Source of the DNA: Octopus vulgaris
Lineage: Eukaryota
Assembly (NCBI GenBank): GCA_951406725.2
Contig: OX597824.1
Span: 34,410,001 to 34,474,000 of the forward strand
Reading direction: 5' to 3'
DNA length: 64,000 nt
The stretch's first letter is position 1, and each line of letters starts with the position of its first letter. The translations under genes and the position numbers were made by a program. Of the stretch, positions 2,075-63,608 are shown one piece after another. The notes beneath the pieces are model-generated. The model ran no database searches. It was not told the origin of the DNA and was given only the letters and a program-made list of their open reading frames with translations.

Positions 2075-2496
2075 GGATCTTTTCGGTTTGAACGGCAGTT
2101 TTTAACATAATTTCTAGGTAACTAAAAAATTTTAAACTTCGTATACTGGTAGAATGTGTTTATAAAACATCTTTTTCTCTTGGCTTTATTGAGAAAATTC
2201 TATAGTTTGTAAGATATTTGTTGTTTTTTTCTTCAATTTCTGCAATTTTGACCAATCAATGACATCCATTGAGGTAAAAAACATTCTGTGCCGTATGAAT
2301 ATGTCCCTCATTTAAGAAACAGATTGGGTTTATTTACATTTGCAAAGAGAAAAAGATACTCTTCCCCCCACCTCTAACCCTAACCCTAACCCTAAAACAG
2401 ATTGAAATGCAATAGATTGATACTAGGGTCATAATTATGGGTGACAATTTCATATGACACCGCTAGAAAAAACTGCCATTCAAACCGAAAAGATCC
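2075..2496. mobile_element. MITE family 1 (GG termini, 8-bp TSD, Merlin-like) with internal (TAACCC)n
   Basis: 29-bp TIR GGATCTTTTCGGTTTGAACGGCAGTTTTT; flanks gtaatttt/gtaatttc; near-identical copy at 52188-52606. Confidence 0.88.
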
Positions 2497-8062: not shown

Positions 8063-10594
8063 GATGTTCCGCAAAGACCGCATTAATCGCCATGGAGGGG
8101 GTGTGATGATTTATGTTCGATCAAATCTATCGGCAATTCCCTGTGATGATTTGAACCAATCTCAGCAGGAAGTATTTTTCTGCAATATACACATGACCAT
8201 GTCAACACTTCTGCTCGGAGTCGTTTACCGTCCCCCAATTATCGTCAAGACGCACAGCTTTTTGATATTCTCAGAACTGCTGCCATGAAAACAGCCGCGT
8301 ATGTGTATATTGCAGGCGACTTCAATTTCCCTGAGATTGACTGGGAGGCCTTCCGTTGGCCGCAAAGTGCAGACGATTTCCTTGAACTGGTGCTGAATTC
8401 AAATTGGTCCCAAGTTGTTACCTCCCCAAACTGGCTCGAATTTTATGCCTCTGGAGATGTGGACACTATACTCCAGAACATTCTGAGTTCAATATGAGCG
8501 GCATGTGCAGCATCAGTACCACGCAAGCACAAAACCCCCCCCAATAGTGCAATTTAGGAGACAGCATGCAGTCCAACTTGCCAGGAAAGAACACCGTAAT
8601 GCTGAACAGGAATACAAATTGCACAAATCAGAGAGCAACAGGAAAAAGCGCAATAGGTCAGCCAACCACCTCAAGCAGGGGACAGAAAAGGCAGTGCTTG
8701 AATTTGAACAACGCATTGCTGCTAACCCTGACAGCAAAGTGTTCTGGAAGTATGTGCACTCAAAGCAGAGACCCCACTCTCCAGTTGGTCCCCTTCGCAA
8801 TCCCCACACAGGACAGATTACTGGCAATCCTGAAGAATGTGCAGAAATCATTGCTGGATGCTATGCCGGCATCTTTACTGTCGAAGGCCAAAATGTTCCA
8901 TCTTCATCACCACTGACATCAGACTCTATATCTACTATGCAATTTACACCAGCATTGCTACAACGCCACCTTAAGAATAAACACAACTATGCCTCTCCTG
9001 GTCTCGATGGTGTTACATACCTACTTCTCAAACGCGGTGGGTACTTTCTTCTAAGCCAACTTTCTCTATTCTTCCAATTCTGTCTTGACAATGGTGTTAC
9101 TCCAGAACAGTGGAAGACTGCCAGTGTTATCCCTCTGTTCAAAAAAGGCGACCGCACATCGCCTGTCAACTATCACCCCATTAGTCTTACTAGCTGCATC
9201 ACCAAACTGATGGAATCCTGTATCAGAGAAACCCTCTGGAACTTCTGAAAGTCGGATTTATTCCTAACTCCAGCTGCTGTAATCAACTCATCGAGTTTCT
9301 TGAGGACGTTACCCAAATCACTGATCGCGGATCCTGGGTGGATGTTGTTTACCTGGACTTTGCTAAGGCTTTTAACTCTGTGCCACACAAAAGACTTATG
9401 GTGAAGCTTTCTGCGTTGGGCGTAAGAGACAAACTCTATAACTGGTTGAAGTCCTTTATTTTCGGTCGAAAAGAGGTTGTCACAGTTCTAGGACAGCACT
9501 CTTCGCCCTATGAGATGACATCTGGTGTACCTCAGGGATGTGTTCTTGGCCCCCTTTTATTTGTTGCATATGTTAATGACATAGATGCCAACTTAAAGAA
9601 TGCCACAGTGCTGAAATATGGAGATGACATCAAGCTATACCTCAAAATAAAGAGGTCAGATCCTGTACACTATAGATCTCTATTGCAAGCAGACCTGGAC
9701 ACAATGCAGCAGTGGATCATGGACTGGCAACTCAAGCTGGCTGTGGACAAATGTACCACCATGCATTTTGGGAGGAGAAACCCAGCGTTCACCTACTCCC
9801 TCCACAACACTAGTCTCAAAAAGTCTTCATGTGAAAGTGACTTGGGTGTTATCGACAGTGATTTGCGTTGGACAAAACACATCACTAAAATTGTCAAGAA
9901 GGCTGAGGTTGTCTTGGCATCACTCACCAAATCCTATGTGAGCCGCTCTCCGACTATCTATCTGCAGCTTTATACAGCTATGGTAAGACCTCACCTGGAA
10001 TTTGCATCACCGGTCTGGAACCCCTATCTTGCCCAGGATATCAATCGTCTGGAACCCCTATCTTGCCCAGGATATCAATCGTCTGGAAGCCGTTCAGCGA
10101 CGTGCAACTAAAAGAATACCCTCCATCAGGCATTTGCCATATCCTGAACGCCTTACTTCCCTGAGCATGGACACATTGAAACTCTGACGTCTGGCAGCTG
10201 ACTTGGCAGACACCCATAAAATTATCAACCATCGTACAAACAATAATTCTGAGCACCTTTTCAAACTCCACCCATCTAACACCCGTGGACATATTTACAA
10301 AGTCAGAAAACAGCATAGCTCCCATGACTTCAGGAAACATTTTTTCATGCTGAGAGTTGCTGAAGCATGGAACAAACTGCCGGCATCGGTTGTTTGTTGT
10401 CGGAGCACTGCATCCTTCAAAACTTCCATGCTTTCTGAGATTCGCCAACACTACACCTGATTTTCTCCCCTCCATACACATACAAGCATGTATCTGACTC
10501 ATGCATTGTTCGCTTTCCAGACATTTGTACATTACTGCATATACTCTGACAAGTTGTGGTGCACCTGAGCACTGTATACAATAATTTCATTATT
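8063..10594 (+). mobile_element. CR1/L2-like LINE, 5'-truncated and pseudogenised (APE endonuclease and RT remnants), inserted into a family B SINE
   Basis: Motifs RKDR..HGGGV, VVYRPP, AGDFNFP.IDW, SPGLDG, YLDFAKAFNSVPH, SGVPQGCVLGPLLF, Y(G)DD, RPHLEFASPVWNP, RKHFF..RV..AWN.LP; stops, frameshifts and deletions; SINE halves at about 7955-8062 and 10596-10620. Confidence 0.92.
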
Positions 10595-12900: not shown

Positions 12901-13349
12901 GGCAAGACTTCCTGTTGTACCCACCAAAAAACACCCCTTTTTTTTTTTTTTTTTTTTTTTACAGAAACCCCCGTTTTCAGCTACAGAGAATACAAATCTG
13001 CAAAAAATTGGCTTTCTCAACTTACCCCCCCACCCCCAATCTCTTCATTTTAAACTTTTTTTCACAAATTTTTTTTCAAAATATGCAAAAAAATACGGAG
13101 ATTATGATATGCTTCTGAAAAAAATATTTTTAATTTTTGTAAAATTTTTTATCAGAAATTTTTTTTTTGTCAAAATATGCAGAAAAAAACAGATTATGAT
13201 TCTGAAACAAATTTCCAAAAATTTTACTACTTAGGGTTAGGATTTTAAGGTTAGAGGGTTAGGGTTAGGGTTTTGGGTTCGGGTTATGGAAAGAAGTGCA
13301 CCAAAAAACAATAAGTTGTGAGAAAATGGGGTGGCAGGAGGAAGTCTTT
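12901..13349. mobile_element. MITE family 2 (G[G/A]CAAGACTTCC TIR) with degenerate TTAGGG tract
   Basis: ggcaagacttcc...ggaagtcttt; homologous to 17191-17727 and 62454-62949; ttagggttagg tract at about 13231-13285. Confidence 0.7.
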
Positions 13350-15995: not shown

Positions 15996-16081
15996 GGCGA
16001 AGTTAAAGAATAAGCACACCTGGTATTTAAGGGTTTAGGGTTACGCCGAAAACGGGTGGTGTGGTATTCTTTACCTCCACT
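15996..16081. mobile_element. MITE family 3, minimal copy (about 86 bp) with a TTAGGG core
   Basis: ggcgaagttaaagaataagcacacc...ggtgtggtattctttacctccac; homologous to the host MITE at 57462-58898. Confidence 0.7.
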
Positions 16082-17190: not shown

Positions 17191-17727
17191 GACAAGACTT
17201 CCAATTGTACCCCCAAAAAAACACACCCCTTTTTTTTTTTTTTTTTTTTACACAAAACCCTGTTTTCGGCTACGGGGAATATGAATCTGCTAAAAAAAAA
17301 TCAGCAAAAATCGGCATTTTGAAATTACCCCTACCCCCTTCTCAAATCCTTCGTTTTTAACTTTTTTCACAATTTTTTTTTTTTTTTCCAAAATATGCGG
17401 AAAAATAAGGATATTATGATTCTGAAAAAAATTTCAAAAAATTTTTCTGCTGAGGTTTAGGGTTAGGGTTAGGGTTGGTGTTTTGGTAAATGAAAATTTA
17501 CTGGTGTTTTAAGGTTGGGGTTTTAGGGTTACGGTTACGGAAAAAACTGAAAACTGAAAAATTTGGAGGCGGGGTGGAGTAAGGGGGTGCAAGAAATTTC
17601 CAAATTCAGATTTTTGGCAATTTTCCGGAATCTCCGTATCCGAAATGGTGGGTTTGGGGCAAAAAAATTTTTAAAAAACAATAATTTGCAAGAAAATAGG
17701 GGGGGGGGGGCGGGAGGAATTCTTTCC
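17191..17727. mobile_element. MITE family 2 with TTAGGG tract
   Basis: gacaagacttcc...ggaattctttcc; flanks gaaaacaa/caaaacaa (7/8); telomeric-like tract at about 17452-17537. Confidence 0.75.
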
Positions 17728-21835: not shown

Positions 21836-24800
21836 TTTGGGTTAAGGGGCAAATTGCCTCTTTGCAAACTTAATCTATGGATGACAACAAACTGCTTTTC
21901 AGCTATGTATTCATTCTTTTAAATGTTCCATGATTTTGGTCATTAAGTATCACTTTTCTATTCTCTTCTAAGGCAGAAGATTCGATCATTGTAGACCCAA
22001 AGTAAAACCTAACAGTTTTTCAAAATCTGATGACAACAAACGCTTCATTTCAAACGCTAAAACCTGTAAATTAAGGAATTTAATTTTAATTTTAAAAAAG
22101 TCACTTACCACATCTCTGGCAAACTGGGCAATGCTACACATCTTTACATACAAAACAACTCCCTCCACTAACTTTATTTCCTTTTAACTTTCTTAATAGT
22201 GCATATTTTTTGTAATAATCTTCAGATAAGTTTTAAGAGATATACATTGAATTCCTTGCACATGATTATTCCATTTTTTGTCTTGCTTCATAAAATTAGT
22301 CATTTTAAGTTTAACAAAAAGAGAAAAGGTTTTCTCTGCCATTAATTGACCTAGGCTACCTGTCTTAATATTGAGAGAAAGAAAACTATTTGTGTGTTCC
22401 CAATATAAAAAAATTCAAACATTTTTGATAGATAGTCAGCAGATGCATGAAACACTCCTAAATGAAAATAGTGACATACAGCTAAAATAAGTAAAAATAT
22501 TTCAACTTAAGGCTTTTAATATACATCATTGCTAAACCCAAACATGGCTCTAATGTTTTATAATGTCTACAAGTTCGTTAATAATTTTTTTTTCCTAATT
22601 AATTAAAAATTTTAAGGTTCCCCAATAACGTTAACATTACAATTAGTGAATTCCACCAAACTAAGATCTGTAACATGATGCTTTTATGTTTTTCTTGAAA
22701 ATATATTATTGCCATCCTGAGTATTTTTACAAGATGGATTTAGAAACGTTCACACAAAGGCTGCAGAAAAGAAGTGGTGCTTAGAAACAGAGCATTTTCC
22801 GAAAATTTCTGATTAGGATTGAATTAAATACTATATTTCTGGTTTAAAGGATGCAATCATTTAGTTATTTCTGATGAATAAGTGATAAATGGCAGCAGTT
22901 GAGAGGGAGTATCATTTTTGTTAAACCAGCTCACACTTATGAAACCTAATACAACTTGATAAACCAGGGTAAGAATGGACAAAAGGGGTCTTTAGGAGAA
23001 AACTCGTGTTGGATATGTGTTATGAGTGATGTGGATGTTTGAAATGCTGGAATTGTTTCAGATATTGGAATTCTATCACAGGCCAAGAAAAGAAGTGAAG
23101 AAAGTTTGTTGTTTTATTCCAGGTTGTGATAGCTGTATTAATGTTACCATTAATGATAGCTGTATTAACGTTACCATCCCACTGCCACTCTACATTTGTC
23201 GCTTACACAATGCTGTTCCCTGATATCAGCCACACTCACTATGCCGCCTTATTTCTCTCACACTAACACTATTTGCACCCTTCTCATTTTATCAAATAAT
23301 AGCCCAACCCCACTAGGGAGCCCATTATAGATTTTTATTGAAATCCAATTTGCATATAATTGAACTGGATGTTAGTTTAACATGTTTGCAAAGTTTCATC
23401 AAGATTGGTTCACTGGTATAGGCAGCAAGATGGTAACAGACAGATTGAGAGATTGAAATTGCCATTTATGTATAAGATTTCAATTGAAGATCAAGATCAA
23501 AGTTCAATGAATTTGAAGTTTCTACAAGTTTAGTAATCTGGGTAGTCGAAACATCTGCTGTATCAGAGCAGCTTCTAAGACACCAATATCAGCTGATTCA
23601 CTGACAGAAAGGTTCTGAAGCTTATAGACTTTGCATTGCATGGCCCAGTGTTTTGGATGAACACTGCATTGAAGCCATTTGTTCGTATTACTTCTGATAA
23701 AGATGATAAAAATCTCCCTATTATAAGCAAAATTGGAGTAATATATAATGTTCAAATCAGAAGGTTTTTCCTACTTAGAAAATGATCTGGAACTTTCCTT
23801 GGACTCAAGCATTAATAATACTTTACTAGCTTCAAACAGGGATTTTCACTTTAGGATGTTTCTTACAGATATTATATGATACATCTGGACAAGTCTGAGC
23901 AAGATAACATCATTCAATCCGCAATTCTTTTTCTGTTTTTTATAATTTACCAATTCCATCTCCTCTTCCATTATTATATTCAGCCAATGACAGTATTTTC
24001 CTTTGTGAATACTTTTGAGTATAGCATAAAAATAGCATAAAAACAGCCTAATCACTAAAAACCATAATAAAATATCCATACCTTATTAAATTCAATAGCA
24101 AGTATTTATAGAAAATGTATAATAATTTAAGTATTATGAGCTAAAAATTGTTATTTAACTTATTTAGCTTATTATAATCAGGACTGAAACCCGGTATTAG
24201 TTAAAAGAATAATTGTTGTTAAAAGGACATACTAATATATACTAATATTAAATTAAGAAGTATAATATAGATTTTAAAAGTTATTTGTGTTAATCCATAA
24301 ATGATATAATAGTTTCTTAGGGGTACTTAATTAGAAGGGCTGTTTGCATAAAGCCAATATAAATACCAAAATTAAGAGGACAGAACACTTTAAGAAAGGG
24401 ATAAAAAAAACTTAGTTACTAAAACTATCTTAAACAATATGTCATTATTGTATAAAGTTAAAATTTAGGGTTATCAGGAAGATTTATCATTGAGGTGAAA
24501 GAACAAATTTACTATAAATTAATTAAATTATAATTTAGACAATTTAATTTTAAGTTGTGAAGATACCTATATTGTTTTTTATAAGCTAAGTATGGATTTA
24601 TTAGGGGCACAAAAATTTAGGTTTGTCTAAAGGCAATTATGAAGTATTAAAATGATTGGGTAGGGTAGAAACACCATAAAAAAGGATATAAATCATGATG
24701 AAGTATATATACCAACTTAGTAACTTTAATAGAGAAGATTTATACAAAATATTTAATAATTCAAGTATTTAAAACTAAAAATTGTTTATTTACTTAATTA

Positions 24801-25144
24801 GCTTGTGTCTATAATCACTGATGCCAAGTATTAACTAAAGGAGAATTAATGCTATAGGGCATGCTACCTATGCACTGCTTTTAAATTAAGAGGTACATTA
24901 TAGGTTTTAAAACCCAAGATCAATAAAGTGCTACTTTCTAAAATATTTGAAGGTACGGGTGACACTATGTACGCATGATACCCAAAGGTCTAATCGATTA
25001 TTAATCAGGTTGCCATTATCCTTATGCTTAAAAATTTCATATGTTTCCATAGAGCAAAGCTCACACCTATATCTGCTATTTCTATAAGGCTGAGCTTTTT
25101 TTATTATTTCCCACTAGAGGCTAACCTCAATTACGCTTTCTAAA

Positions 25145-29814: not shown

Positions 29815-32800
29815 CCATGAAGAAAAGTGGCTGCTGAATGCCGAATTTTCCAAGAAACTTGGACATTAGATTACTTCTTCATTGGATACAACGTGAACTG
29901 ATTTGTTTCATATGTTTAGAAAGTATTGCTGTGAATAAGGTAGCAGATATTAGGCGACACAAGATGTGCCATTATAAAGATTTTAGGACATTTACTGAAC
30001 AAGCAAGGAAAGATGAAGTTGAGTGGTTGAAGTTTAGGTTTGGAAAACAAATGTCATTTTTTTAAAAACAGAAATTGTCAGCTATGAAGTCTCAAAGCAT
30101 ATTGCTGAAAAGATGAAACCTTTTACAGATGGCGATCTTTTTAAAGACTGCTTATTGGCAGTGTTGGATATTGTTTGTACAGAAAAAAGTTTTTATTTGA
30201 AATTATCAGCCTGTCTCCAAGGATGATCACATGGAGGGTTGAAAAAATGTCAGCAGATGTTAAAAATCAATTAATCAACACCTGCAGTGAATTCCAATAT
30301 TTTCAATTGCAGTCAATGAGAGTACAGACTTAAGTGACACTGCACAACTTGCTGTCTTTGTGTGAGGAGTGACTTCAACTTTTCAGATCTTTGAAGAACT
30401 TATTCAGTTAATTCCTCTGAAGGAAACTGTAACCAGAGCAGACATCTTTGAAGCTTTGTTGAAAATGATATCAGAAATGAAGTTTGATTTTTGGCATCAC
30501 AACTGATGGTAGTCAAGCTATGGTAGGACAGAAAAAAAGGCTTTGTTGTACTACTGCAAGAACATATAGAAAGCTTTGGAATCACACATAAACTTGTTAA
30601 AATTCTGTTATATCGCACGTTCGGATGACCACTACTCAACTCTTTGACATCTAGACTTCTCCCTCTATATCTACATATTGGGCTAGCCTACTTCATCATC
30701 TGGGGGCGCCGACACAACACCTCCCCCTTTTGAGTTTTTTAAACCCGAATTTATCAATTTTATTTCCTTGGTGAGAAACTGGCATATCTTTTCCTCTTAG
30801 CATTAATTTCCATCATTTCTGTAGGTTTTCTCTTCCTGTTCGACCTACACATCAGTTCTGCTTTTGCTTGTGGTTCTGGGACCTTGAACAAATCATACCA
30901 TAAATCCATTGGTTCTTCTCGCCTCTCTTGGTTTTTGGTATATCTTTTTTTTTAATTGGTTTAAATGCCTTCTGTGTTCATATTTTGGTCCTTTTACCAT
31001 GTACATCACATTACTCAGATGTCCAGTTACACTTCCTTGTCCCCAGTCCTGTTTCCCGTTACTATATATTTTAAAATACACTTTGTCACCTGTGTTAAAA
31101 AATTTTCGTTTTTCTTCCTGAATTTTCTATTTTCTGTTTCCTGCTCGGTAACTATTTGTCAAAAATAGAATGAATTTTTCTGGAAAACATCAAATCTGCA
31201 GGTGACCTACCTGACTCTGCATTTGGATTCGGTGTTATTCTATACACCTGCAAAAACTTTGTCGTATTTGCATCTTCAAGGATTTCCCGTCTGGTCTTCC
31301 TTAAGGCTCTCTTGAATGTGTCAACAAATCTTTCCGCTAACCCATTTGACCTTGGATGGTATGGTGGAGTTAACACATGCTTCATCTGAACCGACTTACA
31401 GAATCTTTTGAACTTCTTTGCCATGAATTGTGTACCATTATCTGACACGATCATATCTGGCACTCCATAATGAGCAAACAGTTCTTCCAAGAAGTCAATA
31501 GTCACACTTGTGGTTGGCCTTGAACATTTTCACACTTCAGGCCATTTGGAATAGCCATCCACCACAATGATATAATGAGAGCCATTTATTGGTCCTGCAA
31601 AATCCACATGTAGTCTAGACCATGCTGAATCCGTTTTTGGCCATGGTTGAATCTGCACTGGGGGCGCCTTTGCTGCCATAGTGCATCCCCTACACTGTTT
31701 TACCAGTCTCTCAATTTGCTTGTCCATATTCGCCCAATAAATGTAACTTCTCATAAGGCTCTTCATCCGGACAATTCCCAGATGTCCTACATGAAAGTCT
31801 TTTAATACTGTTTTGCAGTGCTTCAGGTATCATCACTCTTTGTGCATATAGTTATACCTCATCACATACTGCCTATCTTACTGCATGTTGCCGTATTTAT
31901 TATCGATACGTCTGAGATGGTATCTAAATGCATTTTGGTCTGAAACCCATTTATTTCTACCAACACAAATTTTCAGTTTTGTCTGGTATAATTTACTTTT
32001 GTTGAGTAGACTTTCTTCTGTTTTACCATTTTCTTTGACCGGCATTTTGTCTGTATATGTCCAATTTTACCACACTTAAAACAGGTTTTATCTTTAAAGG
32101 AGCAATCTTTCTTCAAATGTCGATCACTGCAACCATAGCACCGTTTTGAATTAAAATTTTTCCTTCTTTCTGTACTTTCTTTACACATTTGTACATTATT
32201 ATTCTTGTCTTCTATCTTTCTTGTATCATCTCGAAGGTTATTACAACTTCAAGGTAAAATTCAGCTCATAAATGAAATGTATAACCATATTGTTGCCTTT
32301 GAAGAAAAAGCGACAGTTGTGGGAATATCAACCGTAAAATAAAAATTATGTGCATTTTGTATCATTTCAAAGAATGAAACCATAGGATTCAGAGCTATTT
32401 GTGAATACAATCCAGGATTTGAGAAATGAATTTGCATCACATTTTGCTGACTTTCATCTGCATGCAAATCAGTTTAAATTGTTTGTTGCACCATTTGATG
32501 TGGAGGTGGAGACAGTACCAGAATGTTTCCAAATGGAATTGATTGATATGCAGTGTGACGACTTACTGAGATCTAAATTTCATTCTAAAGATGTTTCATT
32601 GATTGACTTCTATGCAAAATATATTTTTCCAAGTGGGAAGTATACCAACTTAGTGAATCATGCAAAAAGGATGGCATCTTTGTTTGGAAGCACCTATCAG
32701 CATGAGCAATTATTTTCCAAATTGAAGCAAACTAAGAACAATTTCAGAACAAGATTAACTGATAATCATCTTGATAATATCTTGATCTTGGCATCAACAA

Positions 32801-33118
32801 GTTTGAAGCCTAATATTGAGAAGCTTTCAAAGAATAGAAAACATCAAGTTTCCCATTAATTTTTTTGGCTGCTACGTATTTTTACAATTTTTTTTAAACA
32901 AATGATTTCAAAAATGTCTTAAATTGAATAAATGATGTTTTTCCATTATTACATTCATCTGTGGGTAATACAAATTATTTTTAAATATAGTCAGCACTCG
33001 TGATTAAATTTTAGCTTGTGTAATTTTCCATAATTATTCTTTTAAGGCCTTCATCTGGCCCACTATCATCATTGATACTCAATCCAGCCCATGTTGGCAA
33101 AGAAGTTGCCAATCCCTG
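29815..33118 (+). mobile_element. hAT (Charlie/SPIN, GTF2IRD2-like) transposon remnant split by a Gypsy insertion
   Basis: N-terminal ICFICLESIAVNK..IRRH, KPFTDG, ESTDLSDTAQLAVF, TTDG at 29815-30605; C-terminal MASLFGSTY..EQLFS.LK..K...RTRLTD.HL...HQVSH* at 32401-32859; 3' TIR-like gttgccaatccctg ending at 33118. Confidence 0.85.
30606..32240 (-). mobile_element. Gypsy/Ty3 LTR retrotransposon remnant (gag zinc knuckle, integrase, PPT, 114-bp 3' LTR)
   Basis: CFKCGKIGHIQTKC knuckle; WSRLHVDFAGP, IVSDNGTQF, PYHPRSNGLAERFV integrase motifs; polypurine tract at 30720-30731; LTR TGTT..AACA at 30606-30719. Confidence 0.9.
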
Positions 33119-33541
33119 TTTTACTTGTTCCAGTCATTAGACTGTGGCCATGCAGGGTAAGGGTTTGGGTTAGGGTTGAAGAATTGTCTTGAAGAATTTT
33201 TAGTCAAACAAATTGACCTCACTATTTATTTTTTATTAAGCGTGGTACTTATTCTATTGGTCTCATTTGCCAAACCACTAGGTCACAGGGACATAAACAC
33301 ACCAACACCAGTTGTCAAGCAGTAGTGAGGGACAAAGACAGACACACACAGAACCTTGTGTTCAGGAAGCAAGCTTCTTACAACATATCCATAAATATAT
33401 ATATATATCTGCTTGTATTTAAAGAATGTTAAACACTTTCGGTATGCAAATTAAGGACTCCTCCATAGAGTAACTGCTGCACTTGTTGAGTATATAAACA
33501 GTTTGGCTGCTTGTTTCTCTAGAGATTCTCAGAATGATGTA

Positions 33542-35151: not shown

Positions 35152-36489
35152 CCTATTTCTTTACTACCCCCAAGGCGCTAAACACAGAGAGGACAAACAA
35201 GGACAGACAAACGGATTAAGTCGATTACATCGACTCCTGTGCGTAACTGGTACTTATTTAATCGACTCCGAAAGGATGAAAGGCAAAGTCGACCTCGGCG
35301 GAATTTGAACTCAGAATGTAGCGTCAGACGAAATACCTATTTCTTTACTACCCACAAGGGGCTAAACACAGAGAGGACAAACAAGGACAGACAAACGGAT
35401 TAAGTCGATTACATCGACTCCAGTGCGTAACTGGTACTTATTTAATCGACCCCGAAAGGATGAACAGCAAAGTCGACCGTTGCGGAATTTGAACTCAGAA
35501 CGTAATGGCAGACGAAATACCTATTTCTTTACTACCCACAAGGGGCTAAACACAGAGAGGACAAACAAGGACAGAGAAACGGATTAAGTCGATTATATCG
35601 ACCCCAGTGCGTAACTGGTACTTATTTAATCGACCCCGAAAGGATGAAAGGCAAAGTCGACCTTGGTAGAATTTGAACTCAGAACGTAGAGGCAGACGAA
35701 ATACCTATTTCTTTACTACCTACAAGGGGCTAAACACAGAGAGGACAAACAAGGACAGACAAACGGATTAAGTCGATTACATCGACTCCAGTGCGTAACT
35801 GGTACTTATTTAATCGACTCCGAAAGGATGAAAGGCAAAGTCGACCTTGGCGGAATTTGAACTCAGAACGTAGCGTCAGACGAAATACCTATTTCTTTAC
35901 TACCTACAAGGGGCTAAACACAGAGGGGACAAACAAGGACAGACAAACGGATTAAGTCGATTACATCGACTCCAGTGCGTAACTGGTACTTATTTAATTG
36001 ACTCCGAAAGGATGAACAGCAAAGTCGACCGTTGCGGAATTTGAACTCAGAACGTAGCATCAGACGAAATACCTATTTCTTTACTACCCACAAGGGGCTA
36101 AACATAGAGAGGACAAACAAGGACAGACAAACGGATTAAGTCGATTACATCGACCCCAGTGCGTAACTGGTACTTATTTAATCGACCCCGAAAGGATGAA
36201 AGGCAAAGTCGACCTCGGTAGAATTTGAACTCAGAACGTAATGGCAGACGAAATACCTATTTCTTTACTACCTACAAGGGGCTAAACACAGAGAGGACAA
36301 ACAAGGACAGAGAAACGGATTAAGTCGATTACATCGACCCCAGTGCTTAACTGGTACTTAATTTTTTGACCCCGAAAGGATGAACAGCAAAGTCGACCTC
36401 GGCGGAATTTGAACTCAGAACGTAACGGCAGACAAAATACGGCTATGCATTTCGCCCGGCGTGCTAATGTTTCTGCCAGCTTGCCGCCT
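35152..36489 (-). repeat. Tandem array of seven 184-bp family B SINE units with a single tRNA head
   Basis: Unit starts at 35152, 35336, 35520, 35704, 35888, 36072, 36256; head (GGCGGCAAGCTGGCAGAAAC on the minus strand) only at 36440-36489. Confidence 0.95.
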
Positions 36490-41239: not shown

Positions 41240-42440
41240 CTACATCAAATTCAGAAATAGCCAGCTGGCAAAATGAAACCGGACACGGGCAAAGACAGGA
41301 AGACAGTCATCTGCTTTGTTGATTTTGCTGCTGCATTTGACTCCGTCGATTGTGACACCCTCTGGTAGATCATGCAGGCAGATGGTATCCCACCTAAACT
41401 TCTCAATCTTACCAAAGCTTATTAACTGCTCAACAAGATCCCGCATACACATGTACAGTGAAGTGTCGGAACCCTTCAAAATATAGTCTGGCGTTCGGCA
41501 AGGATATGTTCTTTTGCCAACTCTTTTCAATTACGCCATCGACTGGATCACCACAAATGCATTAAGGGAGTTCCCCAGTGTCACTGTTGGTCACAACTTT
41601 TCCATCAAGGATCTAGATTACACAGATGACATTGCGATACTTGGCGAAACATTTGCTGATGTCCAGTTTATTATCATTGAGCTCCGGCATGTTGCATCGC
41701 AGATTGGTATGAAAGTCAATGCCTCGAAGACCAAAACCCTCACAGCTGGCTTCGCCCTACCAGACAAAACACCCATTGTCCTCAATGGTGATATTCTTGA
41801 AGAGGTTGAGAGTTTCAAATACCTCGGTGCCATCATTACAGCTACAGGTCAAGGTGAGGCTGACATTAAAACACGAATCGACCTCGCTCGCCAAGCCTTC
41901 AACCGATTCAATGCATGACTCTGGTCAAGATCTGAGATCCGACGCACCACCAAAGTACGGATCTACCAAGCGCTAGTGTGAATGATTCTCCTTTACGACA
42001 GTGAGTCATGGCCAATGAGGGTGGAAGATATTAAGCAACTAGAATCCTTCAATCACCTGTCTACGCCGCATCCTTCATGTCGAATGGCATCATTTTGTCT
42101 CCAACAATTTGGTGCGACACCAGTGCAAAATCACTTCCCTCCGACAAGTCATCCTAACAAGACGTCTGCGTTGGCTGGGTCATGCCCTCCGTCGTCAACC
42201 AGAATTCATCTACGAAGCAATTGCCCCGGTTCCCCTTCAGGGTTGGCGAAAGCGATGTGGTGGACAATGAAAAACCTGGCTGATCTGGAACCCAACCTAG
42301 GCCCCCATACCTACGGCATTTGCCACTGGAATAAGGAGTGGTTGGAGATCGTTAGCCTCAAATCGCCAGGTCTGGTCGGCGTTTGTGAGATGCAGTATTG
42401 AGGATGAATGAAGCCAGCTAAACCCACCCCGGGTGAATGC
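41240..42440 (+). mobile_element. RTE-clade LINE fragment (second family), RT pseudogene
   Basis: FVDFAAAFDSVD, GVRQG.VL.PTLFNYAIDWI, DLDYTDDI, EEVESFKYLG, LYDSESWP, RRLRWLGH. Confidence 0.88.
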
Positions 42441-44851: not shown

Positions 44852-45787
44852 TTAAGAATTATCTGACCATCGTCTGTAAATTGAATGCTGAAAGAAAATA
44901 TTCACCAAAAACATTTGAGTTACTCTTCCAATTAATATATTATCAGGCAACCAATTTTTTATCCATTCTTGCTGAGCAATTAAGCCATTTCCGATAAAAA
45001 GATAAAATTGTCTAATCATAAGTTGCGTAACAACAAAAACTGTGCCCAATTTACAAACAAGAGTTGGTTGTAAACCTGAGCAACTTAAAATGGACAGACT
45101 ACTTTCTTCTAATAAATCATCATCTTCGTTGTCTTCGTTTTCAAAAAACATTGAAACAGTTTTCTGATAATTGAAGCAATTGACAGAAAAGAGCCGTAGG
45201 AAAATAGTGCCAAGAAAAATAGGACTTAAAAATCTGCCAATCAAATTTAGAAAGTTGGATAGTTTCTCAGAGTTTAGTTGCCAAACACTGCTCACAAATT
45301 CTATCAAAGTGTGTTTAGAATCAAAACAGGATAAAATAGGTAATTCTATATTTTCATTTAAGTTGTTCTCTGTTTTCATGAGTAAAAGTATAAGCATGGT
45401 CAACATGAAACTAAAAGCAGTTTCCCACATCTGTCCAGTTCCTAATGACCACATGAGAACATGGTTGAAGACTGTTAGAAACAATATCACATAAAGAAGC
45501 CAGGTGTTGCTGTTAAAAGTTATTAACACAATATAACAGGATAAACCATAGTTTAGAATAGAAAATATAGCAAATATAATTTGATATATGTACAGGTTAT
45601 CCTCATCATCCTCTTCAGCCAAATCATTTATGTAATTGGAAAGTTTTGTTGCTAGGAGAAGAATAAAGAGAACTTCTTGGAATAACATGATAGGTTCAAA
45701 TAACTGCAGCACAAAGCCATAGACATATACCACTGAATAAGGGATGAGTTTCACAGGGAGAGCCCACAGCAGAATAAATAATCCAAC
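44852..45787 (-). CDS. Exon 2 (311 codons plus stop) of a multi-pass membrane protein, SERINC/ICE2-like
   Basis: 936-nt open frame in AT-rich DNA; acceptor ttttcttatttag|GTT in frame with exon 1; several hydrophobic segments; IMLFQEVLFILL...EED..YQII...LNYGLS resembles the SERINC segment FILIQL.LL.DF...EE..WY..L...LNY.LS (family assignment is inference). Confidence 0.85.
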   Translation of the reverse strand, partial: VGLFILLWALPVKLIPYSVVYVYGFVLQLFEPIMLFQEVLFILLLATKLSNYINDLAEEDDEDNLYIYQIIFAIFSILNYGLSCYIVLITFNSNTWLLYVILFLTVFNHVLMWSLGTGQMWETAFSFMLTMLILLLMKTENNLNENIELPILSCFDSKHTLIEFVSSVWQLNSEKLSNFLNLIGRFLSPIFLGTIFLRLFSVNCFNYQKTVSMFFENEDNEDDDLLEESSLSILSCSGLQPTLVCKLGTVFVVTQLMIRQFYLFIGNGLIAQQEWIKNWLPDNILIGRVTQMFLVNIFFQHSIYRRWSDNS

Positions 45788-52187: not shown

Positions 52188-52606
52188 GGATCTTTTCGGT
52201 TTGAACGGCAGTTTTTAACATAATTTCTAAGTAACTAAAAAATTCTAAACTTCGTTTACTGGTAGAATGTGTTTATAAAACATCTTTTTCTTTTGGCTTT
52301 ATTGAGAAAATTCTATGGTTTGTAAGATATTTGTTGTTTTTTTCTCTTCAATTTCTGCAATTTCAACCAATCAGTGACGTCTATTGAGGTAAAAAAAAAC
52401 ATTCCGTGCCGTATGAATATGTCCCTCGTTTAAGAAACAGATTGGGTTTATTTACATTTGTGAAGAAAAAAATACTCTTCCCCCCACCCCTAACCCTAAC
52501 CCTAAAACAGATTTAAATGCAATAGATCGATACTAGGGTCAGAATTATGGGTGACAATTTCATATGACACCGCTAGAAAAAACTGCCGTTCAAACCGAAA
52601 AGATCC
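52188..52606. mobile_element. MITE family 1 with (TAACCC)n
   Basis: Perfect 29-bp TIR; flanks ctattttt/caattttt; copy of 2075-2496. Confidence 0.88.
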
Positions 52607-56497: not shown

Positions 56498-56553
<56 letters not shown>

Positions 56554-56907
56554 TAGACTAGACTGCCTGTGAACCGTTGGGACACCTAGAAAGTCTGAAT
56601 TTTATTTCGTGGGATTTTTTCTTTACCGGATTATTTCGCATGCTTTCAACGAATGTAACATCAAAATCATGCGTAAACGGCTCCTTTCCCCAGAAAAGAA
56701 AAGATTTGGCTGTTATTTCTTGTATATCCCGCTACCGCGTAACAGGTATTTCGGGTCCTTCATCGCAAGTAGCTGATACGTGGTAGCAGAGCGTGCTAGA
56801 AATAGCAGCCAAAATCTTTGGAGCTGCGATACGTTGAATGCCCTCGAAAAATTTTTTGTAATGGTATTCTTTTGGGGCGATCTATGACTCTCAGAACTGT
56901 CATCCGA

Positions 56908-57372
56908 ATCAGCTGGTTTTGTTCGTTTATTTCCGTAAATTTTTTTTTATCTATTTACTTTTGCTTTGAAGTGAAAAGGAGGAGAAAGTGAAAGATGTAT
57001 GAACATGTATATGAAACGGACGTGTGCATGTGTGTGTGTGAGAGAGAGAGAGAGAGACAGAGAGAGAGAGAGTACCACTTGCACATACATGAGAACACAC
57101 ACGTTCACTCACTCATTCTCTCTCATACACACATGCACACGTACATACAAAAAAGATGTACGCATATGTATTGATGTATGTACGTATACATGACAACACA
57201 CCCCTTCGCGCACTCTCTCTTTCTTTCCCTCTCTTTTTCTCTCTCACTCTCTCTCTCACGTCCATTTCATATACACGTACATACATCTTTCACTTTCTCC
57301 TCTCTTTCACTTTAAAACAAAAGTAAATAAATTTTTTAAAATTGTTACAGAAATTAACGAATTCCAGATGAT
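56908..57372. repeat. Foldback/MITE-like inverted repeat (about 115-bp arms)
   Basis: ggagaaagtgaaagatgtatg..gtatatgaaacggacgtg vs cacgtccatttcatatac..catacatctttcactttctcc. Confidence 0.7.
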
Positions 57373-57461
57373 AAGCGAAAGATCGTCACTCACTTGAAAA
57401 TAATTTTTAAATCATTAAAATATTGTCTGTTTAAAGAAATCTAAGATATAACTACTTACTG

Positions 57462-58898
57462 GGCGAAAGTAAAGAATACGAGGGACGTTCGATAAGTAAT
57501 GCCTCTGACCCACTTGTAGTTGTTTGATCTAGCTGAAATTTTGCATGTGCAATCAATTATATCTCTATAGAGTAAGTGGCAAATTACAGCACTGAATTAA
57601 TTGTGGTTTCTGATTTACAGGTGTTTGAACCGAGTCAAGTGTGAAATGGAGCCTGTTGAGTGTCGAGCAGTGATCCGGTTTTTGTATTTGAAAGGACGCA
57701 CACCACGGGAGACTTTTGATGAAATGAAAGTAACTTATGGTGATGATGCCCCATCATATGACCTTGTAAAACGCTGGTATCGTGAATTCAAACATGGTCA
57801 GAACTCTGTGGAAACAGCTCCCAGATCTGGTCGCCTCCTTCTGCCATTGATGAGGCATCTGTCCATCAAGTTGAGGCTGCCATTTTGGAAGATCGACGCA
57901 TAACTATTCGCCAAATAGCCCTTGAGGTCAAGATTAGTACCGGGTCTTTGGAAACTATCATTCATGACCATTTGCATATGCAAAAGGTATCTGCCAGATG
58001 GATTCCCAGGTTGCTCACGCCTTTCCAGAAGCAAGAACGCGTCGAGTGCTCGAGGGTGAATTTGGAGATGTGCCAAGAAGATGAGTCAAAATTTTTTAAA
58101 AGACTGATTACACAGGATGAAACCTGGGTCCATCACGATGATCCAGAGACCAAAGCCCAGTCAATGCAGTGGAAGCACCGTGACTCACCCCCTCCAAAGA
58201 AGGCAAGGGTGCAGCCCTCCGCTGGCAAGGTCATGCTCAGTCTTCTGGGACCAGGACGGAGTAGTGATGACAGATTTCCTGGCAAAGGGTACCACAATTG
58301 CAGGAGCCTATTATGCTTCACTTTTGAGGAAATTAAGAGAAGTTATCAAAATCAAGAGGCAGGGCAAGATCAGCAAAGGTATCCTCCTCCTGCAGGACAA
58401 CGCTCCGGTCCACAACTTGCTTGTCGCCAGATCAGAAGCACAGGCGTATGGGTATGAACTCCTCCCCATCCCCCCTACTTTCCTGACCTTGCACCCTCTG
58501 ATTTTCACCTCTTCCCAATCATGAAGTTGTTTTTGAAAGGAAAGCATTTCCCAGATGATGCAGCCTTGATTTCTGAAGTCACGTTGAGGTTGGAGGACCA
58601 AGCTGGGTTCTTCTACAAAAACGGTCTCCAGAGCTGCATCAAACGATGGGAGAAATGCGTAACTCTAAGTGGTTCCTATGTAGAAAAAGACTAATAACTG
58701 TGCCAAGTTTCGTTGCTCTACTACTATGGGAAGTGGGTCAGGGGCATTACTTATTGAACGCCCCTCGTATGTACACTCAGTGTTTCGGGCTAGGGTTAGT
58801 GTTAGGATTAGGAATTAGGGCTAGGGTTTAGGGTTTGGATTAGGGTTAGAGTTTTGTTACGCCGAAAACTGGTGGTGTACGTATTCTTTACCTCCGCC
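57462..58898. mobile_element. MITE family 3 (about 146 bp, almost entirely TIRs plus a TTAGGG tract) carrying a nested mariner
   Basis: Perfect 8-bp TSD ACTTACTG (57454-57461 and 58899-58906); TIR GGCG[A/G]A[A/G]GTAAAGAATA[T/C]GTACAC; degenerate (TTAGGG)n at about 58787-58850. Confidence 0.88.
57479..58767 (+). mobile_element. Full-length mariner (DD34D) with frameshifted transposase (57646-58694)
   Basis: 1289 bp, TA TSD, TIR CGAGGG[A/G]CGTTC[G/A]ATAAGTAATGCC; WIPRLL, DETW, QDNAP.H, PDLAPSDF motifs spread over several frames. Confidence 0.95.
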
Positions 58899-59417
58899 AC
58901 TTACTGTACAAACAACTCACATTTTTAAAATCACATTCAGTTAAAAGTATTTTTAAATGATTAAAATATTGTGTATGTCAAAAAGTCGTTTTTTTTTATT
59001 AGAGAGCTCGAAGACTATTTGTGTGCATATGTCATAGATAGCGGACGTGTGTTTGTGTTTATTGGCACACCATGACATTCATTATGTGTGTGTGTATTCT
59101 GTATGTGTGTTGACGTCATGGATGTGATTTTTTTTCCGCCAAGAAATAACAAACAAAAATTGTGTTTAATAATTTTCCTTAATAAATAGAATCCTAAATA
59201 CCACAAAAATTTGTACTGCACTACTGAAGGTAAGTATGAAAACAAATATGCAAAAAATAATAATAATAATAAGATGAAATATTCTATTTCTGAGATATTT
59301 GGGGTACACACAAACATCTTTAGAGTTTTAGTATTATCAAGATATATATTGTTTGTAAAGAACATAAATCTGAAAGAAGCATTCTCTAAGATGTAGAGCA
59401 GTATATATTAAAGATTG

Positions 59418-62453: not shown

Positions 62454-62949
62454 GACAAGACTTCCTTTCGTACTCCCCCACCCGATTTATTTTTTATTTT
62501 AATTTTTTTTAATAGAAATCCCCGTTTTCGGGTACGGAGATTACGAATCTGAAAAAAAAAAAATTGGCAAAAATCGGCATTTCAACCCCCACCTCTCTCT
62601 CTCTCTCTCACAGAGAGAAAGAGAGAGAGAGAGAAATTTTTTCATTTTTTTTACTTTTTCAGAAATATTTTTTTTTTGCAAAATGTGGAAATGGAAAAAT
62701 ACGGAGATTATGATTCTGAAAAAATATCTCCCAAAATGTTTGTAAAATTTCAACTTAGAAAAAAGAAAAAAAAACCTCCCCCTCCCCTCGCAATCTACCC
62801 TTTTCGCCATTGCACATGTGTTGACTTTTACGCTAAAAGTGAAACTTTGGAAGTGAAATTTTGAAATGCCGATATTTGCTCAATTTCTGAGGTTTCTGTA
62901 AAAAAATTTAAAAAATAAGGTGGTGGGGTTTACAAAAGGAAGTCTTTCC
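62454..62949. mobile_element. MITE family 2 relative (no telomeric tract)
   Basis: gacaagacttcctt...aaggaagtctttcc; tctttaa on both flanks. Confidence 0.72.
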
Positions 62950-63338: not shown

Positions 63339-63608
63339 GGTGGAAAAGTGATTTCCTACCATGTCTTATAATGATAATGACGAGAAAGTCATAAAAATTA
63401 AGAATTTCTATTTAAAAAACTTCATTTCTATATTACGTATATTCATGTCCCAAGGTTCGACAAATTTCATAGTTAGGCAATTTAGGAAAATTGGGACATG
63501 AATATACATAATACAGAAATGAAGTTTTTTTTACATAGAAATTCTTAACTTTTATGACTTTCTCATCATTATCATTTATAAGTCATGGTAGAAAATCAAT
63601 TTCCCACC
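63339..63608. repeat. Foldback MITE-like inverted repeat (about 115-bp arms, about 40-bp spacer)
   Basis: ggtggaaaagtgatttcctaccatg...tgtcccaa / ttgggaca...catggtagaaaatcaattttcccacc. Confidence 0.82.

Follow-up and report, generated by a model that had tools for sequence, protein, structure and literature searches.

Merlin transposons are defined by terminal inverted repeats (TIRs) of 24–462 bp with terminal GG and by target site duplications (TSDs) of 8–9 bp; internal tandem repeats are frequent among them, and Merlin has been proposed as a carrier of tandem repeats (PMC8101967). Described non-autonomous Merlin elements have GG ends, a 24-bp TIR, an 8-bp TSD, imperfect TIRs, and internal tandem repeats, as does the element analyzed here, which is located at 57454..58906 of a 64,000-nucleotide stretch of Octopus vulgaris DNA (the window). 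The two differ in that the octopus element carries a telomere-type run, whereas "telomer" has 0 occurrences in the main text of the Merlin paper (PMC8101967), and in that the octopus element is assigned to the superfamily from its ends and TSD. The S1 table of the same paper lists a 6-bp repeat with 39.5 copies for Merlin-1 of Aplysia, the unit of which is not given in the table.

The TBE elements of the ciliate Oxytricha are, like the octopus element, DNA transposons carrying the telomere repeat of their own host. However, TBEs belong to Tc1/mariner, are autonomous, and insert at 3-bp ANT targets, and their repeat makes up the tips of the TIRs (PMC4724952), whereas the octopus run is internal, one-sided, and variable in length. 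Membership in a TBE-type class of telomere-bearing transposons was considered and rejected on account of the internal run and the 8-bp TSD. The GTCY MITEs of insects and Xstir of Xenopus are likewise short and take a tandem repeat along as a passenger when they spread, but the unit in octopus is the telomere hexamer of the host and recurs in three unrelated families (PMC6947457).

Short interstitial telomeric sequences (ITSs) resemble the octopus run in being degenerate internal TTAGGG runs with variable numbers of units. In mammals, short ITSs are ascribed to break repair, locus by locus, whereas the octopus run arrives inside a TIR-bounded element for which both a TSD and an empty site are seen (PMC9693754, PMC7215372). 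Transposon insertion is listed among the proposed origins of ITSs (PMC9693754), and it has been called a mystery that the chromosome arms of animals have so many such tracts (PMC9071541). TTAGGG is described as the only experimentally determined telomere motif of cephalopods (PMC13218726). A search of titles and the beginnings of abstracts, with the subscription literature mostly outside its scope, returned no report of telomere repeats inside Merlin elements or MITEs with GG ends and 8-bp TSDs. The families described here may already be catalogued in Repbase or Dfam, which lay outside the comparison.

Structure of the element

The element consists of the following parts, given with positions in the window and strand.

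57454..57461 (+): left copy of the 8-bp TSD, ACTTACTG, 8/8 identical to the right copy; the empty-site joint 57453->58899 has 8 letters in common
57462..57478 (+): left TIR, bases 1-17, with GG at the start and the TA hit by a mariner at the end
57479..58767 (+): nested mariner of 1,289 bp with a broken transposase; TA is duplicated at 57477-78 and 58768-69
58770..58776 (+): last 7 bp of the left 24-bp TIR
58784..58853 (+): degenerate TTAGGG tract with ~11 units and 3 exact hexamers; 59/68 aligned bases agree with a perfect run
58854..58874 (+): conserved subterminal block, common to the sibling and to contigs of other runs
58875..58898 (-): right 24-bp TIR, ending with GG; position 58898 is the element boundary, behind which there are loose ends in 97, 73, and 76 contigs of the runs X5, X6, and X7 introduced below
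58899..58906 (+): right copy of the TSD, ACTTACTG, matching the left copy

Removal of the mariner at 57479-58767 leaves 17+129 = 146 bp, the length of about 146 bp that was given in the original prediction. The TIRs and the TSD were also predicted correctly, as GG-ended repeats of 24 bp and a perfect 8-bp duplication, and ~11 units can be counted in the tract where about 10 had been expected. The TIRs match in 21/24 positions, have GG at both ends, and can be loosely extended to ~37 bp (27/37). The probability of a perfect 8-mer at the given ends by chance, calculated from the local composition, is ~6e-5. The arms of the nested mariner are 40 nt long and 93% complementary, and its transposase, with the Pfam domains HTH_48 and Transposase_1, is split over three broken frames. 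Both the 146-bp element and an 86-bp sibling in the same window are short and non-coding and have TIRs and a TSD, as is characteristic of MITEs.

The element is housed in a multicopy host repeat (~56550-59100), which starts after an AT microsatellite and has an inverted repeat inside at 56922-57361. A Helitron-like nature of the host repeat is a guess.

The TTAGGG tract

The tract was aligned to a perfect TTAGGG run with two 1-bp gaps. Its score of 46 was reached in 0/2000 dinucleotide shuffles, the maximum of which was 28, and TTAGGG was the best-fitting unit, ahead of 6 other units tried. Both results argue against the tract being a chance G/T-rich microsatellite that has no relation to telomeres. 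That reading, together with its counterpart in which short repeats happen to pair into an apparent element, is very improbable. The remaining identity is alike in the tract (87%, 59/68) and in the TIRs (88%, 21/24), which fits neutral decay after the insertion.

The element had been proposed as a mobile source of G-quadruplex motifs, and this holds for copies with long tracts only. The 146-bp copy contains no canonical G-quadruplex motif with loops of up to 7 nucleotides and one with loops of up to 12, and its G4Hunter score is 1.24. The sibling has three G3 runs, no G-quadruplex motif, and a G4Hunter score of 0.88; the family as a whole was therefore rejected as a G-quadruplex source.

Family copies and mobility

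The shorter sibling, which the original prediction had placed at 15996-16081 with about 2 units, is real:

15996..16081 (+): sibling of the same family, 86 bp, ~2 units with 1 exact hexamer, in poly-A

It has the same ends and the same subterminal block as the 146-bp element. Its TSD, which matches in 7/8 positions and is located within poly-A, is weak, and the GG is lost at the right end.

The locus was compared with three runs of contigs from public data that carry three other organism labels (X5, X6, and X7). The three are nearly identical in their variants and were therefore counted as close relatives rather than as independent lineages. RNA runs contained 7-10% of the words, and one run guessed to be RNA contained 29%. 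From a run of raw reads (X22), 16 of 12.9 million reads were placed, which is too few to be informative.

Empty sites, which the original prediction suggested looking for in related species, are present in two contigs of X5 and one of X7 among the rows listed. They have the joint 57453->58899, at which 8 letters fit either side and the intervening letters are not known, and they miss the entire element rather than the tract alone. Because the flanks are multicopy, the empty sites may be paralogous and not orthologous; in both cases, the target has the 8-mer once. In X6, 17 contigs extend to the left of 58899 and resemble the left flank in 26/30 positions, as judged by eye. Copies free of the mariner are indicated by joints 57479/80->58852/54 in at least 15 (X5), at least 12 (X6), and at least 8 (X7) contigs. 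The agreement of the flanks behind 58898 is 0.37-0.39, as expected with many insertion sites. With 2 copies per 64 kb and 73-97 contigs per run with differing flanks, the family is dispersed and of high copy. The ratio of summed depth to single-contig depth is ~1,700-2,300, which is not a copy number and indicates only an order of a thousand. The empty sites and the many flanks in the contigs of X5-X7 bear out the predicted mobility of the element.

The contigs are also informative about the length of the tract. Loose ends before 58852/58856 were found in 85, 64+59, and 55+48 contigs of the three runs, and their consensus has 2-3 TTAGGG-type units after letters that resemble the left TIR. The agreement of this consensus upstream of 58852/58856 is 0.52-0.60, which describes a majority and not the share of copies. 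Back-joints 58853->58791 and 58858->58787 are compatible with longer tracts. At positions 58821 and 58850, the majority letters give the canonical unit, to which other TTAGGG DNA may contribute. Most copies of the family seem to be ~85-100 bp long with 2-3 units, and the ~11-unit tract described here seems to be an expanded form. The TTAGGG run is thus supported as a family trait of variable length, and the family is not one in which most copies lack TTAGGG. The predicted variation among copies is evident from the ~11 units in the 146-bp element, ~2 in the sibling, and 2-3 in the contig consensus. However, the characterization of the MITE as essentially a telomere-repeat cassette applies to copies with long tracts and not to the typical member, of which a run of 2-3 units is only a minor part.

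In one contig of X5, position 57652 inside the mariner is joined back to 57619, with 31 letters in between that include TTAGGG units; this joint is unexplained.

Probable assignment to Merlin

The GG at both ends, the 24-bp TIR (21/24), and the 8/8 TSD agree with the published definition of Merlin (PMC8101967), as anticipated from the GG termini and the 8-9-bp TSD typical of these transposons. The element is likely to be a Merlin-type MITE, with a transposase that would be encoded elsewhere.

The terminal consensus of Merlin is GGNRM. The left end of the element fits it, the right end deviates at position 5, and a second family in the window, family A, deviates at position 4. No Merlin domain was detected in the 46 of 64 open reading frames of the window that were scanned (18 derived from microsatellites were left out).

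Sequences outside the window were also compared. "Octopus" appears 443 times in the Merlin protein file of PMC8101967. TTAGGG pairs recur at a constant position in several of the Merlin-hit contexts in one file of that paper (36+8 occurrences, 17 places of which were viewed), and TTTAGGG runs occur in another; neither could be assigned a position relative to Merlin TIRs, and they do not count as support here. Seven TIR and subterminal motifs had 0 matches in the available part of the supplements of PMC8101967. The pattern combining the subterminal block with the TIR had 0 hits in a metagenome scan. Scans with the TIR only gave 97 hits in metagenomes and 36 in viral contigs. None of these 133 had both a partner TIR and a TSD, one had a partner TIR and no TSD, and none matched the element over more than 30 bp. 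These hits were treated as chance similarities.

It is unlikely that the element instead belongs, as a non-autonomous copy, to a different superfamily with 8-bp TSDs, such as Mutator-like elements, hAT, or P. Such a reading draws on the fact that the Merlin assignment was made from the ends and TSD and not through a link to a transposase. Mutator-like ends can start with G and their TSDs can be 8–11 bp, and a hAT fragment is present in the window. In contrast, the ends of hAT and P elements mostly begin with CA or TA, and the combination of GG ends, a 24-bp TIR, and an exact 8-bp TSD is that of Merlin. The choice of superfamily affects the name only and not the rest of the explanation.

Further TTAGGG-bearing elements in the window

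Two further families with like ends and a like repeat, unrelated to the first, were overlooked in the original prediction. Their copies are the following.

2075..2496 (-): family A copy with GG-ended TIRs (23/24), TSD 7/8, and three exact units at 2378-2395 on the minus strand
52188..52606 (-): second copy of family A with TIRs 24/24, TSD 7/8, and three exact units at 52488-52505
12901..13349 (+): copy C of the third family with a GG left end, an eroded right end, TSD 7/8 in poly-A, and a tract at ~13231-13290
17191..17727 (+): copy D of the third family with a GG right end, a GA left end, TSD 7/8, and a tract at ~17453-17540
62454..62949 (+): copy E of the third family with an exact 7-bp TSD (8/8 if one terminal G was lost) and without TTAGGG

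Between the family A copies, tract length varies by about one unit. Comparison of the families with the runs masked revealed no clear similarity between them: the scores were 15-32 relative to shuffled maxima of 22-32, and 3/11 pairs were marginally above. The motif TTTTCGG is present near one end in all three TTAGGG-bearing families (57462-58898, 2075-2496, 17191-17727, 62454-62949) and could be a common transposase site or a product of chance.

Tract loci were defined by a TTAGGG score of at least 14, and the window contains six of them. Five, in the 146-bp element, the two copies of family A, C, and D, are inside GG-ended elements with an 8-bp duplication (7/8 or 8/8). All five exact tandem hexamer pairs and 17 of the 30 exact hexamers of the window are also inside GG/8-bp elements, which in the three families make up 4% of the window bases. 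The binomial chance of such placement is 6e-7 for five of six loci and 2e-4 at the family level (three of four); both values are post hoc, as C, D, and E have eroded ends and their limits were set after the tracts were known. The other inverted-repeat elements of the window (9/9, including the mariner) have TTAGGG scores of only 5-9 and no tract.

A blind scan for TIRs with an 8-bp TSD, which included a complexity filter, returned 34 candidates. Three had GG at both ends, all with a tract, and one with GG at one end scored 12. Five block shuffles of the window gave 0 GG-ended candidates, which, together with the empty sites and many flanks, argues against a chance pairing of short repeats. Without the filter, the 1,221 candidates were swamped by microsatellites. 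Four control hexamers gave 2-6 loci each in the window at a score equal to that used for TTAGGG, which gave 6; in DNA this rich in microsatellites, a chance microsatellite is compatible with these counts, and it is the placement of the TTAGGG tracts that stands out, not their number. Considering the tract score together with the empty sites and many flanks, a chance origin of the tract or the element is largely refuted.

The sixth tract (33154-33177) is within a SINE-like repeat, outside the GG/8-bp elements. The region 33154-33194, in which this lone degenerate tract adjoins a direct duplication of 10 bp, looks like a break at which a telomerase-type insertion took place. The GG-ended inverted repeat at 63339-63608 has neither TTAGGG nor an 8-bp duplication.

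Judging from one window, Merlin-type or GG-ended elements are likely to be the main source of short telomere-like runs within octopus chromosomes, and GG/8-bp elements would supply most short interstitial TTAGGG runs of the genome. Since a single type of element end accounts for five of six tracts, and one of these elements has an empty site, the idea of a transposon origin can be evaluated by counting in any octopus assembly. TTAGGG counts, telomere calls in assemblies, and telomere lengths estimated from reads could be inflated in cephalopods.

Origin of the TTAGGG run

The element inserted into a multicopy host repeat with duplication of 8 bp, was later hit by a mariner, and belongs to a dispersed family, most members of which have the run in the same position. 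On balance, these observations are best explained by a Merlin-type MITE in which the telomere-type run is inherited as a passenger and becomes longer or shorter through slippage. A Merlin transposase encoded elsewhere would act in trans to move the 146-bp element, which would insert with an 8-bp target duplication, and the mariner would enter later at the TA of the left TIR. The TTAGGG run would spread with the copies, and slippage would alter its length, typically to 2-3 units and to ~11 in this copy. After insertion, the run and the TIRs would decay neutrally. Copy E and the GG-ended repeat at 63339-63608, both of which lack a tract, and the one of the six tracts that is in a SINE-like repeat do not conform to the passenger pattern. 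A pure passenger model also leaves the hexamer common to three unrelated families unexplained, and two other readings, a binding site and a telomerase event in the founders, were therefore retained.

It is possible, although we give it limited credence, that the run is a selected functional part of the element: a candidate site for a TRF-type telomere protein or the transposase that would aid mobilization or the survival of copies. Three families that are unrelated outside the tract all have the telomere hexamer of the host in a fixed position, and the share of exact hexamers within these elements (17/30) points in the same direction. The 146-bp copy contains four TAGGGTT heptamers, which are presumably TRF half-sites. 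A subset of interstitial repeats is bound by human TRF1 and TRF2 (PMC7215372), and in the TBE transposons of Oxytricha the telomere repeat of the host is part of the TIRs (PMC4724952). However, the tract decays as much as the TIRs in this copy. It is one-sided, and its orientation is not constant: it points toward the near end in C and D and in the opposite direction in the two copies of family A. Furthermore, the tract is absent from copy E, and there is only one heptamer in the sibling. If it is true that the run binds telomere proteins, the element would represent mimicry of a host factor by a DNA transposon.

A broader form of this reading is doubtful. Here, carriage of the host repeat would be a recurring selected trait, and independent Merlin-type MITE families would keep TTAGGG to recruit a telomere-binding protein. 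They would be the main source of short ITSs in cephalopods (~80 per Mb if the window is typical), and in other phyla the unit would perhaps track the motif of the host.

It is improbable that telomerase wrote the run, either into the family founders or into single copies, during the repair of an internal double-strand break or excision gap. The unit is identical to the host motif, and the tract at 33154-33177 beside the 10-bp duplication and the X5 contig with TTAGGG at a mariner-internal joint hint at such events. Among mammalian interstitial repeats, there are documented cases of telomerase-type insertion at breaks (PMC7215372). However, the run has the same position in many copies, so there is no need to invoke addition by telomerase copy by copy. 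No run is present in the abundant mariner or in 8 further inverted-repeat elements of the window, although these break as well, and there is no tract-free ancestral element among the copies examined. With these data, a founder telomerase event is not distinguishable from inheritance.

Other features of the window

The open reading frame at 44852-45787 on the minus strand encodes a protein of 311 aa that is 100% identical to a protein named from Octopus vulgaris and 69% identical to an Argonauta protein. The product is of membrane type, has no Pfam family, and only 3 homologues of it were found. Fragments of LINE reverse transcriptases, an integrase, and a hAT transposase are located at 8150-10111, 31152-31529, 32386-32859, and 41487-41918.

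Rfam had 0 matches in the window. The AT-rich region 24000-24950, which has no Rfam match at the gathering score, reads like mitochondrial rRNA and contains a 230-bp internal duplication (24056-24279, 24687-24912); it is possibly a numt. A 184-bp unit is repeated 7 times in tandem at 35152-36440 and is also dispersed in the window. The segment 27202-28424 is a 1.2-kb near-perfect palindrome (98.9%) flanked by TA microsatellites.
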